Source: Candidatus Nomurabacteria bacterium (GTDB lineage Bacteria > Patescibacteriota > Minisyncoccia > Phycocordibacterales > UBA9973). From it: a DNA stretch of 44,287 nt. Positions 3,244 through 24,715 of this stretch are shown in pieces. Numbering within the stretch: the first letter of the stretch is position 1; each line of letters begins with the position of its first letter. The stretch spans positions 134,221 to 178,507 of the forward strand of contig CALRAL010000002.1 in assembly GCA_943350875.1 (NCBI GenBank), written 5' to 3'. A program made the translations under genes and the position numbers. Below the pieces are notes generated by a model. The model saw only the letters and a list, made by a program, of their open reading frames with translations. It was not told where the DNA came from and searched no databases.

Positions 3244-3552
3244 ATGTTAAAAATAAGATTACAGAGGATAGGTAGGAAGAATGACCCTTCATTTAGGGCG
3301 GTTTTGACTGATTCAAAGAACAGCACAAAGAGCGGAAAGTTCTTGGAAGTTGTCGGTACATATAATCCAAAAGCTGGAGTGACGGTTTTTAAGTCAGATA
3401 GGATAAAATATTGGATGAGTAAAGGCGCAAAGCTTTCTGATACAATGCACAACTTTATGGTGCACGAAAAAGCGATTGAAGGTAAGAAAATAAATGCATT
3501 GCCAAAGAAAAAGCCAACTCAAAAGAAAAAGGAATTGAAAGCTAAAAAATAA
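3244..3552 (+). CDS. rpsP: 30S ribosomal protein S16
   Basis: MLKIRLQRIGRKNDPSFR...GTYNP...YWMSKGAKLSDT. Confidence 0.97.
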   Translation: MLKIRLQRIGRKNDPSFRAVLTDSKNSTKSGKFLEVVGTYNPKAGVTVFKSDRIKYWMSKGAKLSDTMHNFMVHEKAIEGKKINALPKKKPTQKKKELKAKK

Positions 3553-13566: not shown

Positions 13567-14781
13567 ATGAAGAAAAAAACAAAAATAAAGAAAGTAAAAA
13601 AGTTAATAAAGAAACAAGTAAAAAAAATTAAAAAAACAGTTAAAGTCAAAAAAGTGGTTAGAAAAGATAAAAAGTCAACAAAAAAGACAATTAAAAAAAC
13701 AACATATGCAGAGAAAAAGATAGAGGAGTTGGGAAGACTCTCAAACGAACTGATAGAAAAAGGCAGAAAAAGAGGGTTTATTACTTATGATGAGATATTA
13801 AAGACTTTTCCAGATATTGAGAATAATATTTTATTTTTAGATGAACTTTATGAAAAGTTTACAGTGGCAGGAATAGATATATTGGAAGGTGGTAACTTAC
13901 TTAATCTAGATAATGATGCCAGCGATGGAGATATGAACAAATCCACCATGCACGATTCCATCCAAATGTATTTAAAGGAAATAGGACAATATGCGCTTAT
14001 AAATGCCAGTGATGAAAAAGGACTTGCTAAAAGAATAGAGAATGGAGACGAAGAAGCAAAGAATTTACTAGCTCGTGCAAATTTGCGTCTTGTTGTGTCT
14101 ATTGCCAAGAAATATGTGGGTAGAAGTGCGAACCTGACCTTACTTGATCTTATTCAAGAAGGAAATTTGGGGCTTTTTAAAGCAGTGGAGAAATTCGACT
14201 GGACTAAAGGATATAAATTCTCTACCTATGCTACCTGGTGGATTCGTCAGTCTATCACTCGAGCATTAGCCGACCAATCTAGGACTATTCGTATTCCTGT
14301 GCATATGGTGGAGACTATTTCAAAATACAAACAAACACATAGAAAACTTAGCCAAGATCTCGGTCGTGAACCACTGGCAGAAGAGATAGCGACAGAGATG
14401 GGTATTCCAGTGGAGAAGATACATGTGATTGAGAATATTTCCCAAGAGACTATTTCTTTGGAACAGCCAATAGGGGATGACGATGATAAATCCACTTTGG
14501 AGAATTTTATTCCAGATGATAAGATCTTACGCCCTGACCAAGAATCCTCAAGGAGAATTCTGTCTGACCAGATTCGTGAAGTCTTAGATGAATTAAACCC
14601 AAAAGAGAGAAAAATATTAGAGATGCGTTATGGTTTACTTGATGGCATCCAACACACTCTTGAGAGAGTGGGGGAAGAATTCGGCGTGACTCGTGAACGT
14701 ATTCGTCAAATCGAAGCGAAAGTACACGACAAACTTCGCCAGCACGAAAAAATATCTCGTTTAAAAAACTATTTTGACTAG
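13567..14781 (+). CDS. rpoD: Primary sigma-70 factor with a Lys-rich N-terminal tail
   Basis: [62 protein letters not shown]. Start taken at ATG 13567, after the dnaG stop. Confidence 0.96.
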
Positions 14782-14788
14782 TTCCAGC

Positions 14789-14814
14789 AATTTAAGCAAG
14801 GGTAGTCCTTGCTG
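14789..14814. repeat. 26-bp direct repeat containing a REP-like hairpin, copy 1
   Basis: AATTTAAGCAAGG-GTAGT-CCTTGCTG, identical to 15519-15544. Confidence 0.85.
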
Positions 14815-14817
14815 GAA

Positions 14818-15495
14818 CTAAGGAGTAATTCTATTTTCGTTAAATATCTGTTCGTGTATTTTAAAATCTAATTCCATGTTTTTTATATATTCTGGAATCA
14901 GAGAAAAATCAAGAATAGTTGATTCTGGTCGATTGCTTTCTATAAAATCTTGGTAGCTGGAAAATCCATATTGTTCTAAAAAATTCTTAGCCTCTTTTTT
15001 ATTTTTAACACCATTTTCTTTCCACCCTTTATCAATTATTGAAAGTGGATTAAGATGCACATAAGAAAATATATACATATATTGTGATTCATTATTAATG
15101 TGTTCTGATCTGAAAGGATGGGTAAAAAGGGGACCGCTCCTTTCGTATTTAGTATTAAAATACATTGAATAAGCGGTTAAAAGTTTAGCCATAAATTTAC
15201 TTATACCGCCAGACTTATGTTCATATAAAATTAAGTGAAAATGATTTGGCATTAGACAATAACCTAAAATTGAAACAAGAGTTTTACTTCTTTTTTCTTT
15301 AAAAATATCTTTCAAATTATTTTTACTTGTTTGCAGAAAATTGTCCATTCTAAATGAATCAGTTTGGTTCATTATATACAATAGGGCGACAAAACGATTG
15401 TAGTCTTTTATATTAAGAAATATCTTACGTTTTTCTACTCCTCGAGAATATATGTGATAATATTCGCCTTCAACAAATGGGGTTTTTCTATACAT
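14818..15495 (-). CDS. REP-associated tyrosine (HUH, Y1) transposase, RAYT-like, copy 1
   Basis: YYHIYSRG, YCLMPNHFHL (HUH), YFNTKYERSGPLF, YVHLNP, FSSY. Start MYRKTPF at 15495, 6 nt after TATAAT. Confidence 0.9.
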   Translation of the reverse strand: MYRKTPFVEGEYYHIYSRGVEKRKIFLNIKDYNRFVALLYIMNQTDSFRMDNFLQTSKNNLKDIFKEKRSKTLVSILGYCLMPNHFHLILYEHKSGGISKFMAKLLTAYSMYFNTKYERSGPLFTHPFRSEHINNESQYMYIFSYVHLNPLSIIDKGWKENGVKNKKEAKNFLEQYGFSSYQDFIESNRPESTILDFSLIPEYIKNMELDFKIHEQIFNENRITP

Positions 15496-15518
15496 ATATC
15501 TATTATATATGGATATAA

Positions 15519-15544
15519 AATTTAAGCAAGGGTAGTCCTTGCTG
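15519..15544. repeat. 26-bp direct repeat containing a REP-like hairpin, copy 2
   Basis: Identical to 14789-14814. Confidence 0.85.
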
Positions 15545-15714
15545 AAAATACTGGAAATAAGAAACATTATATTTAGTTATCCACATTATTCTTTGACAAA
15601 AACTGTCGGGGGTAGTGTTACGGTATTACTATAATTTGGATTAAAAAATATGAAAGAAGAATTTAAAAATTATACTGAACAAAAAGAGATATCTTGAAAA
15701 TAGATACGGAAAGT

Positions 15715-15741
15715 AAAATACAAGGCAAGACCTTGTATTTT
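15715..15741. repeat. REP-like hairpin
   Basis: AAAATACAAGG-CAAGA-CCTTGTATTTT; same CAAGA loop as the hairpins at 22687 and 23385. Confidence 0.75.
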
Positions 15742-15774
15742 TAATCTCTCGTTTAAAAAACTATTTTGATTAAA

Positions 15775-21189: not shown

Positions 21190-21903
21190 TTATGCCTTAG
21201 TTGGTACAGACATTATACCTGCTTTGTAGGCGTTTGCTATATATGTTGTAAATAATTTAATTGAAGGTATAGAAGCATCATTACCTACGATAGGGTAATC
21301 AATGCCTTTTATGTTTGAATCAGAATTTACAAGGGCTATTACTGGCACATCGTATTTCTTTGCCTCAGTAGCTGCTATGTGTTCTGCTTTTGTGTCTATG
21401 ATAAACAATGCGTCTGGAGTTTTCTTTACACCCACTAAACCGGAATAATATCTGGAGAGTTTTTCCATTTTCTTTGCCATAACTACTCGTTCCTTTTTTG
21501 TATATTTTTCGAGGCTTCCTTCTGCAGAATCTTTACGATAATTCTCAAGGCTATTTATTCTCTTTTTTATTTCTGTAAAATTACTCAAAGTGCCACCGAT
21601 CCACCTCTCTACTACATAAGGCATATCTAGAGACATAGCGATAGTCGTGATTGTATCTTGAGCTTCAGGTTTTGTACCGACAAATAAGACAGTCTTGTTT
21701 TTTGCGCCCAGTTCTTTTACGAACTCCATAGCGCTATTTAGCATCATAGTGGTCTTTTCTAGGTTTATGATGTCAGTCCTGTTCTTTGTAGCTAATATAA
21801 AAGGAGACACAGAAGGGTGTCTTCGGGTCTTTGAATATCCGTAATGCGCTCCAGCGCTAAACATCTGTTCTATCAAAGTTTCGTCGTTTTCTACTTTTTG
21901 CAT
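21190..21903 (-). CDS. rpsB: 30S ribosomal protein S2
   Basis: AGAHYG, LFVGTK, RWIGGTLSNF, PIVGND. Confidence 0.97.
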   Translation of the reverse strand: MQKVENDETLIEQMFSAGAHYGYSKTRRHPSVSPFILATKNRTDIINLEKTTMMLNSAMEFVKELGAKNKTVLFVGTKPEAQDTITTIAMSLDMPYVVERWIGGTLSNFTEIKKRINSLENYRKDSAEGSLEKYTKKERVVMAKKMEKLSRYYSGLVGVKKTPDALFIIDTKAEHIAATEAKKYDVPVIALVNSDSNIKGIDYPIVGNDASIPSIKLFTTYIANAYKAGIMSVPTKA

Positions 21904-21909
21904 ATAAGG

Positions 21910-21938
21910 ATTCTAGCAGAAAGCTGATACTTTTGCAA
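21910..21938 (-). promoter_or_regulatory. rpsB promoter (near-leaderless)
   Basis: Minus strand TTGCAA-17 bp-TAGAAT, ending about 6 nt before the ATG. Confidence 0.6.
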
Positions 21939-21949
21939 CTTTGACCAAA

Positions 21950-21974
21950 AATTGCTAAGTCTTGCCTAGCAATT
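21950..21974. repeat. REP-like hairpin, inverted orientation
   Basis: AATTGCTAAG-TCTTG-CCTAGCAATT. Confidence 0.85.
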
Positions 21975-22656
21975 ATGGCCAAATTATTTCACCATATGAG
22001 TTATAAAGAGGGACTAAATTTTTTTCATATTCTGTTCCAATCAATCTATCTAATCTAGTTTTTAGCATTTTTATATATTGTTCATTTGAAAAACTAAAAG
22101 GTAAATTTATTTTGCCTGTTTCTGTTTTTCCTCCAATGGTTGGTATTTTGATAGATTTAGTATTCTTTGGATTTTCTAATTGAATAATATTTTTATTTAA
22201 AACAAGAGCGTGAATATTTTTAGGCATGATTTTTTTGTCATAAAAATTTTCAATATAATTTTTGTCTACAAGATTTTTTAGAGAAATATTTTTTAATCCT
22301 TCAAATGATTTTTTATCTAAATCTTTATCTAATAAAATTCCAACCTGACCGGCTTCTGGCCATGGATAATCACCATCTTTAAATGAATAAAGACTTGGAT
22401 CATATATAGTCATATAAGTAAAATTATGATTTTCCCAAGCTGGGTGATTAAATTTACCTCCATACTTCCAATGAACTTGTTTTCTATCTGAGATAGGGTT
22501 GATACCCTCTTTTAAAATTCCAGGTATATTTGGTATTTGGGTCCAGATCAAAAAACCTTCAAATTTTTCAATGTTAATTTTTTTTTGTTCGATTTTTTTA
22601 ATAATTCCTTCTTTTGTAGAATTCTTACTAAAACTAAGGTTCTCATTGAAATTCAT
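21973..22656 (-). CDS. Hypothetical protein, possible ADP-ribosyltransferase-like fold
   Basis: 227-aa AT-rich ORF; IWTQIPNIPGILKEGINP and IMPKNIHALVL motifs; C-terminal PLYNSYGEIIWP. Confidence 0.6.
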   Translation of the reverse strand: MNFNENLSFSKNSTKEGIIKKIEQKKINIEKFEGFLIWTQIPNIPGILKEGINPISDRKQVHWKYGGKFNHPAWENHNFTYMTIYDPSLYSFKDGDYPWPEAGQVGILLDKDLDKKSFEGLKNISLKNLVDKNYIENFYDKKIMPKNIHALVLNKNIIQLENPKNTKSIKIPTIGGKTETGKINLPFSFSNEQYIKMLKTRLDRLIGTEYEKNLVPLYNSYGEIIWP

Positions 22657-22686
22657 AAATATATCATAACATTTTATTTATATAAT

Positions 22687-22713
22687 AAATTGCTAGGCAA
22701 GACCTAGCAATTT
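22687..22713. repeat. REP-like hairpin
   Basis: AAATTGCTAGG-CAAGA-CCTAGCAATTT; overlaps the RAYT stop codon. Confidence 0.85.
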
Positions 22714-23367
22714 TTCATTGTAGCTTAACCAGCCAAAGACTTCTTCTTGAAATGTTTCTTTGTTTAGAAAATATTTTGGGAAAACTTTTATATTTAGTAT
22801 TTTATTTTGAACCCTCTCTTTTTCCAGGTAATCAAGATAACTTGAATATTTGTAGTTTTGTAAATATTCAAGAGTTTCTTTTTTATTTTTAATTCCATTT
22901 TCCTTCCAATTTTTATCTATTAATTTTACTGGATTTAAATGAATATAAGAGAAAATATATTTTAGGTATCTATCTTCATACAAATGTTCAGACTTAAATT
23001 TACCTTCAAATAAACTCCCGATTCTTTTGTATTTTTTGTTGTAATACATCACATAGGCGGTCATAAGTTTTTGCATAAATTTACTGATACCTTTTTCTTC
23101 TATCTGAGTGATAAGAATATGAAAATGATTAGGCATTAGACAATAAGAACCGATTGATACAATTTGTTTTCCTCTTTCAAAATCATAAGGACTTTCTCCT
23201 TTGGCCAGAGTAAAGATCCTAAAATCATTGGTGGAATTACAAGCGTACATAAGACTCAAAAAGCGGGAATAATCTTCATTATCATGAAAAATTTTCTGTT
23301 TACTATTACCACGATTGTATATATGATAATATTCACCATTGGCTAAATTTATTTTTCGAATAGACAT
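22693..23367 (-). CDS. REP-associated tyrosine (HUH, Y1) transposase, RAYT-like, copy 2
   Basis: YYHIYNRG, YCLMPNHFHIL, YYNKKYKRIGSLFEGKFKS, YIHLNP, YSSY; paralog of 14818-15495. Start at 23367 (6 nt after TATAAT) or 23373. Confidence 0.9.
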   Translation of the reverse strand: MSIRKINLANGEYYHIYNRGNSKQKIFHDNEDYSRFLSLMYACNSTNDFRIFTLAKGESPYDFERGKQIVSIGSYCLMPNHFHILITQIEEKGISKFMQKLMTAYVMYYNKKYKRIGSLFEGKFKSEHLYEDRYLKYIFSYIHLNPVKLIDKNWKENGIKNKKETLEYLQNYKYSSYLDYLEKERVQNKILNIKVFPKYFLNKETFQEEVFGWLSYNEKLLGLA

Positions 23368-23384
23368 AAACATATTATATGCCT

Positions 23385-23419
23385 AAAGAAATTGCTAGGC
23401 AAGACCTAGCAATTTCTTT
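23385..23419. repeat. REP-like hairpin
   Basis: AAAGAAATTGCTAGG-CAAGA-CCTAGCAATTTCTTT. Confidence 0.85.
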
Positions 23420-23426
23420 TGCAACT

Positions 23427-23455
23427 TTGACCAAAAGGGATTTTTCGGGTAGGAT
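23427..23455 (+). promoter_or_regulatory. proS promoter (leaderless)
   Basis: TTGACC-17 bp-TAGGAT, 6 nt before the ATG. Confidence 0.6.
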
Positions 23456-23461
23456 AGAGGG

Positions 23462-24715
23462 ATGAGACAATCTAAACTTTTTACAAAAACAAAAAAAGAG
23501 AGCCCAGAGGGTGAAGTGTCTAAAAATGCAGAACTCCTTATTCGAGGGGGTTTTGTGCACAAGGAGATGTCCGGTGTGTATAGTTATCTACCTCTTGGTT
23601 TGCGAGTGATTAAAAAAATTGAAAATATAATCAGAGAAGAAATGAATGGGGTGGGTGGGCAGGAGATCTTGATGTCTGCTTTCCAACCCAAAGAGAATTG
23701 GGAAAAAACTGGCCGATGGGAAAGTATGGATGACTTGTATAAGGTTCCAGATTCTTCGGGTAAAGAAGTAGCGCTAGGTCCTACGCATGAAGAGATAGTG
23801 GTGCCAATTTTAAAAAATTATATTTCTTCATATAAAGACTTTCCCATAGCTATCTATCAGATTCAAAATAAATTCAGAATGGAATTACGAGCAAAATCTG
23901 GACTTTTACGAGGTCGCGAATTTATCATGAAAGATATGTATTCTTTTCACACTAATAAAGAAGATTTTGAAAATTTTTATGAAAAGATGAAAGGAGTTTA
24001 CAAAAGTATTTTTAAAAGAATAGGTATTGGACATTTAACTTACATGACTTTTGCTTCCGGTGGGACTTTTTCGAAATATTCTCATGAATTTCAGACTATC
24101 ACTCCTGTCGGTGAAGATACTATCTATGTAGATGAGGGTAGCAGTGTGGCTGTTAATAAAGAGGTTTTTAATGATGAAATTTTGGACCAACTTGGTCTAG
24201 ATAAGGCTAAAATGGTTGAACATAGAGCTATTGAAGTCGGTAATATCTTTGATTTAAAGACTAAGTATTCAGTCCCTTTTGATTTATCCTATACTGACGA
24301 AAAAGGGGAGAAAAACACTGTTTTGATGGGTTGTTATGGTATCGGCTTGGGGAGGCTTATGGGTACAGTGGTAGAGGTGCTTTCGGATGACAAAGGTATT
24401 ATCTGGCCTGCGTCCATTGCTCCATTTTCAATACATTTGCTTTCACTCGGTGAGGATGAAGCGGTTTTGAAAGAAGCTGATAAAGTGTATGATGCTTTGA
24501 TAAAAAATAATGTGGAAGTTCTATTTGATGATAGAAGTGGATTTTCTGCCGGGGAGAAATTTGCTGATTCTGATTTGCTTGGTATTCCACTGCGTGTTGT
24601 AGTATCTGCGAGAAGTATTAAAGAAGGCGGAATAGAATTGAAAAAGCGCACGGAAGAAAAAGGGAAAATTGTTTCTTTAAATGAATTATTATCTTTGCTA
24701 GCACCTAAAAGCTAG
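23462..24715 (+). CDS. proS: Proline--tRNA ligase (short form, editing insertion largely absent)
   Basis: LGPTHEE, QIQNKFRMELRAKSGLLRGREFIMKDMYSF, MGCYGIGLGR, anticodon-binding domain. Confidence 0.95.
   Translation: MRQSKLFTKTKKESPEGEVSKNAELLIRGGFVHKEMSGVYSYLPLGLRVIKKIENIIREEMNGVGGQEILMSAFQPKENWEKTGRWESMDDLYKVPDSSGKEVALGPTHEEIVVPILKNYISSYKDFPIAIYQIQNKFRMELRAKSGLLRGREFIMKDMYSFHTNKEDFENFYEKMKGVYKSIFKRIGIGHLTYMTFASGGTFSKYSHEFQTITPVGEDTIYVDEGSSVAVNKEVFNDEILDQLGLDKAKMVEHRAIEVGNIFDLKTKYSVPFDLSYTDEKGEKNTVLMGCYGIGLGRLMGTVVEVLSDDKGIIWPASIAPFSIHLLSLGEDEAVLKEADKVYDALIKNNVEVLFDDRSGFSAGEKFADSDLLGIPLRVVVSARSIKEGGIELKKRTEEKGKIVSLNELLSLLAPKS

Follow-up and report, generated by a model that had tools for sequence, protein, structure and literature searches.

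REP-associated tyrosine transposases (RAYTs), which accompany repetitive extragenic palindromes (REPs), are generally regarded as domesticated genes that occur in single copy and do not move, and the HUH Y1 elements as moving without target duplication. The term 'REPtron' is reportedly in use in this field. Here we analyse a stretch of 44,287 nucleotides (the window) from a Candidatus Nomurabacteria bacterium (contig CALRAL010000002.1, positions 134,221 to 178,507), in which a cassette of a RAYT-like gene, three REP hairpins and a passenger gene, the cargo, lies between rpsB and proS. With a probability of roughly 0.6 we read this cassette as a REP-bounded mobile unit, made up of the RAYT-like gene and its passenger, that was inserted between the -35 boxes of rpsB and proS and duplicated 21 bp of the target.

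In the sections of Nunvar 2010 (PMC2817692) drawn on here, RAYTs are described as always flanked by inverted REPs and as free of signs of mobility resembling that of insertion sequences (IS); those sections report neither multiple RAYT copies nor a change of location. Long target duplications of variable length (8-514 bp) are on record for IS1549 and IS1634, and the portion of De Palmenaer 2008 used here offers no mechanistic model for them. Searches of open-access main texts found neither a target duplication nor a passenger gene reported for any RAYT, and nothing on RAYTs in Patescibacteria. The RAYT-like group described below departs from the account given in the above sections of Nunvar 2010.

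Results

The cassette between rpsB and proS

The genome from which the window derives (G000) comprises 646 kb in 6 contigs with about 36% G+C, the window being part of contig 2. The proposed mobile unit measures 1,465 bp (21951-23415), lies between rpsB and proS and is bounded by the inverted terminal hairpins REP1 and REP3. Read from rpsB to proS, the order is the left direct repeat (DR1), REP1 (inverted), an open reading frame (ORF) of 227 amino acids, REP2, an ORF with a Y1_Tnp match, REP3, two bases and the right direct repeat (DR2). The features of the locus are as follows.

21190-21903, minus strand: rpsB (ribosomal protein S2), left neighbour; Pfam Ribosomal_S2, E 1.7e-67
21930-21950, no strand: DR1, left copy of the duplicated 21-bp target, from a repeat search; one copy in the empty sites of relatives
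21951-21973, minus strand: REP1, terminal hairpin with 1 mismatch, abutting DR1 without a gap and following the cargo stop codon
21973-22656, minus strand: cargo gene, 227 amino acids, predicted ADP-ribosyltransferase fold
22689-22711, plus strand: REP2, middle hairpin, exact; covers the end of the transposase gene, stop codon included (...LLGLA-stop)
22693-23367, minus strand: RAYT-like Y1 HUH transposase gene; likely start MSIRK at 23367, the listed ORF extending to 23373
23391-23413, plus strand: REP3, the other terminal hairpin, exact; its extended 15-bp stem enters DR2 by 4 nt
23416-23436, no strand: DR2, right copy of the duplicated target
23462-24715, plus strand: proS (prolyl-tRNA synthetase), right neighbour; Pfam tRNA-synt_2b and HGTP_anticodon

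The direct repeat, CTTTTGCAACTTTGACCAAAA, is identical at 21/21 positions between its copies at 21930-21950 and 23416-23436, which are spaced by 1486. Its chance expectation in the window is 0.01 matches, two or more copies arose in 0/100 shuffles, and a search of the 646-kb genome allowing up to 3 mismatches returned just these two copies. Matches to the REP hairpin, ATTGCTAGGCAAGACCTAGCAAT, were likewise obtained in 0/100 shuffles. Folded as single-stranded DNA, the hairpins of REP1, REP2 and REP3 reach -7, -10.4 and -15 kcal/mol (z scores of -3.05, -6.04 and -7.90), the mismatch in REP1 weakening its stem. REP2 and REP3, which flank the transposase gene, are in direct orientation, and the inverted partner REP1 lies beyond the cargo. 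The arms at 21947-21974 and 22688-22715 show 96% complementarity across 28 nt, and an inverted REP pair thus encloses the 227-amino-acid ORF at 21973-22656. An earlier reading of this DNA, made from its letters and ORF translations alone (the sequence-only reading), had proposed both the layout DR-REP(inverted)-cargo-REP-RAYT-REP-DR and the inverted REP pair around a whole gene; each feature was recovered in its place, and the pair is the one formed by REP1 and REP2.

At up to 3 mismatches the genome holds 8 REP copies, 5 of them outside the cassette, which is far fewer than in classical RAYT hosts. One of these (C4:5538-5560; L004, L110) lies in frame within an rsmA-like ORF, where it is part of a linker that differs in length among relatives, and another (C5:13793-13815) gives a glutaredoxin-like ORF its end ...LLGLA-stop, as REP2 does for the transposase.

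The insertion site in relatives

We searched the DNA of 40 relatives, 24 of them of the same genus, found rpsB and proS as neighbours in many of them, and read the rpsB-proS spacer in 16 same-genus relatives (L012-L030). In 15/16 of these rpsB and proS are adjacent without the cassette, 57-148 bp apart; the remaining one, G019, has an NYN-domain gene and no REP in a spacer of 691 bp. The relative whose proS is closest among those compared (G021; 88% identity over the first 150 residues) carries a single copy, tTTTTGCAACTTTGACCAAAA, which matches the 21-mer at 20/21 positions, in a 73-bp rpsB-proS spacer, and close variants of the 21-mer are found in the spacers of G006 and G007. The alignments of the rpsB side and of the proS side of the query to these three relatives overlap by about 20-22 bp exactly at the direct repeat. 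Since the 21-mer is single and in the same promoter context in relatives free of the cassette, the direct repeat represents duplicated host sequence, and the comparison shows that the cassette is an insertion. The pre-insertion state that the sequence-only reading had reconstructed, and had suggested looking for in related rpsB-proS intervals, thus exists among relatives. None of the relatives without the cassette carries two copies of the repeat, so that the first refuting condition named in that reading does not apply.

The NYN-domain gene of G019 (L015 907-1398) lies between the same rpsB and proS -35 boxes, as an independent insertion at the same spot. A stretch matching the locus is present in three public runs of one study, labelled lake water metagenome, two of which are possibly the source. 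The contigs from these runs held no empty-site contig, no joint across the direct repeat and no circle junction, a result that, coming from contigs only, is uninformative either way.

Promoters at the cassette boundaries

rpsB and proS each kept a complete promoter because the 21-bp repeat contains both -35 boxes. The sites are listed below.

21910-21938, minus strand: rpsB promoter; -35 TTGCAA (in DR1), 17-nt spacer, TG-extended -10 TAGAAT, 6 nt, ATG (promoter scan)
23427-23455, plus strand: proS promoter; -35 TTGACC (in DR2), 17-nt spacer, TAGGAT, 6 nt, ATG (promoter scan)
23374-23402, minus strand: transposase promoter; -35 TTGCCT (loop and 3' arm of REP3), 17-nt spacer, TATAAT, 6 nt, ATG of MSIRK
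22671-22700, minus strand: cargo promoter-like site; -35 TTGCCT in REP2, 18-nt spacer, TAAAAT, 14 nt, ATG (consensus match only)

Both host -35/-10 pairs keep their 17-nt spacing in the scan, in line with the sequence-only reading, which had placed the insertion where two divergent promoters overlap. Read by eye, the rpsB-proS spacers of 16 relatives show these motifs again at the same spacing, and the distance separating the -35 boxes varies across relatives from 2 bp (G021 and the reconstructed G000 site) to about 600 bp.

The transposase promoter is the best-scoring promoter-like site of the region (10 of 12 in the scan); on the minus strand REP3 reads ...TCTTGCCT... at this position. The REP2-borne site ahead of the cargo scores weaker than its REP3 equivalent. 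A -35 box carried by the hairpin in this way occurs at 14/61 RAYT loci, all of them in the clade of this transposase (51-77% identity); the 61 loci comprise 51 from 24 relatives and the 10 of this genome. With the -35 box lying in the hairpin, binding of the transposase to its own hairpin could control its own synthesis, which would amount to a simple self-regulation circuit.

In rpsB, proS and the transposase gene (21903-21938, 23427-23464 and 23365-23402) 6 nt separate the end of the -10 element from the ATG, and a Shine-Dalgarno sequence is absent. In the rpsB-proS spacers of most relatives the ATG also follows about 6 nt past the -10 element (read by eye). This arrangement suggests that the messages of rpsB, proS and the transposase may be leaderless.

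The transposase and its paralogues

The transposase matches Pfam Y1_Tnp (E 1.1e-9; 38.9 bits vs a cut-off of 23), and its translation contains the HUH motif NHFHIL and the tyrosine motif YIHLNP. Against the NCBIfam equivalog model REP_Tyr_transpos (NF047646) it scores 41.6 bits, which is under the 80-bit cut-off. The protein is a Y1 HUH enzyme that resembles the REP-associated kind.

The 646-kb genome contains 10 diverged RAYT-like paralogues of 33-64% identity. Nine of them bring their own flanking hairpins, the tops of which are similar (AGG-loop-CCT, compared by eye), and the one at C1:86741 shows none. Orthologues in relatives (57-77% identity) also have their own stems, arranged in direct or inverted pairs; in the closest of them, that of G043 (77%), the flanking REP pair is inverted. 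For 11/14 of the closest orthologues the genes on both sides match a G000 site without a RAYT, and the remaining three could not be placed on both sides. The neighbours of the G043 orthologue are cysS and metK; in G000 these two genes are separated by an empty junction of 13 bp. GC content is 26-29% in all 10 RAYT genes and in the cargo, vs a genome mean of 35.6% (standard deviation 4.3). Comparison of these loci shows RAYT-like modules that are present in many copies and change locus between species.

The RAYT coding region itself contains a copy of the cognate hairpin in nine loci (L052, at 3391-3420, and L051, L053, L056, L058, L062, L063, L069 and L084). On contig 3 (96000-101500; L043) two identical RAYT genes form part of 2,262-bp tandem units with repeats of up to 312 bp, and these units interleave with four copies of a gene's 3' end, the gene being taken as peptidoglycan-binding from its translated end. 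This tandem complex shows that plain segmental duplication also occurs around RAYT genes.

The 11-mer TGTGGATAACT (the DnaA-box consensus followed by CT) lies beside the hairpins of RAYT modules from four lineages, namely at 15575-15585 of the window, at C1 226267 and 227951 of G000, and in three copies each in L050 and L059, where it is part of a repeated unit; the genome has 10 copies. DnaA boxes were set aside as an explanation; the 9-mer TTATCCACA has 33 copies in the genome, of which just 2 lie within 100 bp of a RAYT and 0 in the cassette.

Host sequence duplicated at other RAYT loci

At the 61 RAYT loci most flanking repeats are the hairpins themselves. At 6/61, however, the repeats consist of host sequence of 21-207 bp, and three of these loci are in this genome.

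Case A, this cassette: 21/21 identical; both -35 boxes of rpsB and proS
Case B, window 14751-14780 and 15743-15772: 28/30 identical; last codons of rpoD
Case F, G000 C1 226247-226277 and 227931-227961: 30/31 identical; region upstream of mraZ
Case C, L039: 75/82 identical; promoter and leader of the downstream gene
Case D, L033: 121/122 identical; 3' end of a gene whose translation is PilB-like
Case E, L052: 174/207 identical; 3' end of a gene

In every case the repeat leaves a promoter or a gene's 3' end intact, and in 6/6 cases a hairpin lies within 5 nt of the repeat on at least one side (by eye). As a control, 147 ORFs of 180-300 amino acids from this genome were searched within 1 kb for exact flanking repeats of more than 15 bp other than hairpins, and 0/147 have one. 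The sequence-only reading had called the direct repeat unexpected in that HUH elements make no target duplication; the sections of Nunvar 2010 used here agree on this point, and five further loci flanked by direct repeats have now been found.

In case B the module occupies the following part of the window.

14751-15772, minus strand: RAYT module, with hairpins at 14782-14817, 15523-15544 and 15715-15741 and a RAYT paralogue at 14818-15495

The left repeat copy completes rpoD and keeps its end ...NYFD-stop by way of two synonymous differences. Empty sites are found in G005 and G008, which have a single copy followed directly by a convergent DsbA-like gene. Also in the unit are the DnaA-box-like 11-mer, an ORF of 15 codons and a hairpin that resembles a REP and shares its CAAGA loop with the cassette REP.

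Case F has the layout of the cassette, i.e. direct repeat, REP, a 215-amino-acid gene, REP, RAYT, inverted REP, 3 nt and direct repeat, and the homology of at least eight relatives continues through its left repeat copy. The unit (C1 226247-228540; L044) contains the closest paralogue (64%), four cognate REPs and two slots delimited by REPs, with genes of 215 and 159 amino acids. Case C encloses an extra gene of 205 amino acids that has no match in G000.

Single genes between cognate hairpins

At least three cognate hairpins within about 6.7 kb are found at 18/61 RAYT loci. Twelve slots were listed that extend from a REP flanking a RAYT to another cognate REP; nine of them are filled by one ORF (159-485 amino acids). 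These nine ORFs belong to unrelated Pfam families (PgpA, NADAR, PsbP-like, TPR and PG-binding), four being without a Pfam family. When three slot genes of G000 were searched for in 30 other genomes of the genus, they were found in 1, 1 and 0 of them, vs 30/30 for rpoD. No RAYT lies near the homologues of two slot genes in other genomes. These counts fit an association of RAYT modules with strain-specific genes, and they suggest gene capture. The gene-capture idea of the sequence-only reading therefore stands in part: nine further single-ORF slots and the rarity of slot genes speak for it, and no cargo was seen moving alone.

The NADAR family is linked to the reversal of DNA ADP-ribosylation. 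The slot beside the RAYT of G043 (L047 3754-4311) holds a NADAR-domain gene and the cassette a DarT-like fold, which may be coincidence.

The cargo gene

The cargo has a GC content of 25.9% and matches no Pfam or NCBIfam family; PADLOC returned one weak match (E 0.032) and a profile search of the PDB one row at chance level. Besides the cargo itself, its relatives among 1.84 billion representative proteins number 17, the closest with 50%, 43% and 35% identity. Of 16 members of the family, 15 have no Pfam match, and the one match (E 0.014) is to an unrelated family.

A structure model of the cargo was obtained with a mean predicted local distance difference test score (pLDDT) of 85.4 and a predicted template modelling score (pTM) of 0.82. 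Compared with 48,161 chains, its top four matches are DarT structures with Z scores of 8.8, 8.4, 8.3 and 7.9 (132-140 residues aligned, root-mean-square deviation 3.4-3.6), values near 8 being within the typical range of the tool for unmatched models. Proteins of ADP-ribosyltransferase fold make up most of the 50 structural matches listed. A Foldseek search of the PDB gave nothing at E of 0.001 or below, its best match being DarT1 at a non-significant E of 0.13. In a six-frame search of the genome Pfam DarT (PF14487) had no match at E up to 1, and no macrodomain of the type found in the antitoxin DarG was detected in the genome. Inside the cassette there is no second gene beside cargo and transposase; NADAR was not among the families searched for in this genome. 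The 16-member family alignment contains no invariant His or Glu. On the basis of the model, the cargo is predicted to be an ADP-ribosyltransferase-fold protein nearest to DarT, its activity being left unassigned.

The cargo was found in 0/80 other genomes of the genus. In the order, a profile search over 401 genomes found cargo-like sequences in 3/400 other genomes, as distant C-terminal matches only, in frames of 264-345 amino acids, and no RAYT lies near these three. A four-row alignment search of genome-contig and metagenome-contig collections returned no relatives of the cargo.

Discussion

We propose that the transposase itself probably does the moving. In reactions of HUH enzymes the protein attaches to a 5' phosphate, which it then transfers to a free 3'-OH. 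The terminal REPs being inverted, both strands of the element begin at their 5' ends with the same hairpin, and the enzyme could become linked to each 5' phosphate. The two 5' ends would then be joined to the 3'-OH at nicks on opposite strands of the target, at least 20 bases or some helix turns apart, and gap filling by repair synthesis would produce the repeat. In a compact genome mostly those insertions would survive that duplicate an essential signal, i.e. a promoter or a gene end. We extend this only tentatively, and with the odds against it, to the genus as a whole: its RAYT-like enzymes may be active autonomous transposons that move double-stranded REP-bounded units, with or without passenger genes, by joining their 5' ends to nicks 20-200 bases apart. 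If true, this would be a pathway of HUH transposition so far undescribed, in which long duplications let units settle in essential promoters and gene ends without damaging them.

Several observations weigh against the proposal that the cassette transposed into its present site as a unit. Relatives of the IS200/IS605 kind are described, in the sections of Nunvar 2010 used here, as making no larger target duplication, and 55/61 RAYT loci have no host-sequence repeat. Among these is the closest orthologue, that of G043 (77%, between cysS and metK), and therefore the duplication either is not obligatory or decays. The repeats vary from 21 to 207 bp, unlike a fixed enzymatic stagger, and no shared motif or cleavage motif is evident by eye at the ends of the two verified target sites, which are only two in number. 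In the contigs of the public runs neither a transposition intermediate nor a polymorphism of the site was seen. Finally, cargo and transposase may or may not have arrived jointly.

The main rival is homology-driven (Campbell-type) integration of a circular or linear DNA that carried the cassette together with a piece of the rpsB-proS spacer, for instance after imprecise excision in a related strain and subsequent uptake; the repeat would then mark the extent of shared homology and not a staggered cut. For integration by homology it speaks that the repeats are always host sequence and variable in length (21-207 bp), and that the older-looking pairs differ (75/82 and 174/207), as divergence between donor and recipient could also bring about. 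RAYT modules recur after rpoD in G000, G014 and G019, and in three further genomes (L033, L037 and L047) the genes flanking a RAYT match one and the same stretch of G000, in which the PilB-like gene lies. The insertion of G043 without a direct repeat would also fit a duplication that is incidental. However, such a route requires an earlier copy at the same locus, and none is present at rpsB-proS in the 16 relatives read. A length of 21 bp is, as is generally known, at or below the usual minimum for RecA-type recombination, and repeats of similar size (21, 30 and 31 bp) are found at three loci of one genome, with a hairpin no more than 5 nt away at each (by eye). We consider homology-driven integration rather unlikely. 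That the 21-mer belongs to the element, as part of a longer REP unit or terminal repeat, or that its second copy is a chance match, can hardly be right: the extended stem of REP3 does enter DR2 by 4 nt, but the 21-mer is single in the same promoter context in cassette-free relatives, accompanies 0 of the other five genomic REP copies and has a chance expectation of 0.01.

A different view of the same data takes the REPs as the boundaries of single genes. The RAYT-like enzyme would be dedicated to gene capture, recruiting or moving single genes delimited by cognate REPs in an integron-like manner, and the cargo would be one such cassette. The 18/61 loci with at least three cognate hairpins and the 9/12 slots with a single ORF from unrelated families would be explained in this way, as would the rarity in the genus of the cargo (0/80) and of the three slot genes tested (1/30, 1/30 and 0/30) and the presence of a second unit (case F) with the same layout DR-REP-gene-REP-RAYT-REP(inverted)-DR. 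Yet no REP-gene-REP unit was found at two places or without a RAYT, the homologues of two slot genes elsewhere have no RAYT nearby, and the passenger gene of L039 lacks a REP on its outer side. Moreover, hairpins that spread to neighbouring spacers of a compact genome would enclose genes anyway. Dedicated gene capture, although plausible, appears improbable to us, and transposition of the whole REP-bounded unit remains the reading we prefer.

The RAYT-like modules described here are multi-copy and locus-changing and carry strain-specific genes, and six of them lie between copies of host sequence. Should the enzyme be the cause of these duplications, they would represent a new mode of integration for HUH transposases. 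They would then also provide a route by which foreign genes enter genomes with almost no spare DNA, the insertion duplicating the very signal it hits.

The cassette can be compared with four described systems. The cargo is like DarT, the single-stranded DNA ADP-ribosyltransferase toxin of DarTG, in its predicted fold; unlike DarT it has no Pfam DarT match, no macrodomain partner and no invariant His or Glu. IS1634 and IS1549, which are DDE elements related to the IS4 family, have long variable target duplications as here, according to the portion of De Palmenaer 2008 used. Their enzyme is of the DDE and not the HUH type, and they have ordinary terminal inverted repeats and no REP hairpins.

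With the IS200/IS605 family (e.g. IS608) the cassette shares a Y1 HUH enzyme and hairpins at or near both ends, which are in direct orientation in two loci here. That family is described, in the sections available, as having neither terminal inverted repeats nor a larger target duplication, whereas the cassette has a 21-bp duplication. Furthermore, the accessory gene of the cassette is not tnpB. IS200/IS605 elements insert 3' of a fixed tetra- or pentanucleotide that their left end also carries; the two verified sites, too small a sample for this comparison, showed no tetranucleotide in common.

The RAYT/REP systems are the closest. Measured against the partial account of Nunvar 2010 used here, the differences are the 10 diverged paralogues in 646 kb, the orthologues that change locus between species, and the direct orientation of the gene-adjacent REPs with the inverted partner beyond a passenger gene. 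The 21-bp target duplication, the very small number of dispersed REPs and the score of the enzyme under the NCBIfam REP_Tyr_transpos cut-off also set the cassette apart. On the other side, the inverted pair flanking the G043 orthologue conforms to that account. The cassette is like RAYT/REP systems in its Y1 HUH gene with cognate REP hairpins on either side and the stop codon within one of them, in the further hairpin copies in the genome (8 in all) and in the hairpin type peculiar to each paralogue.

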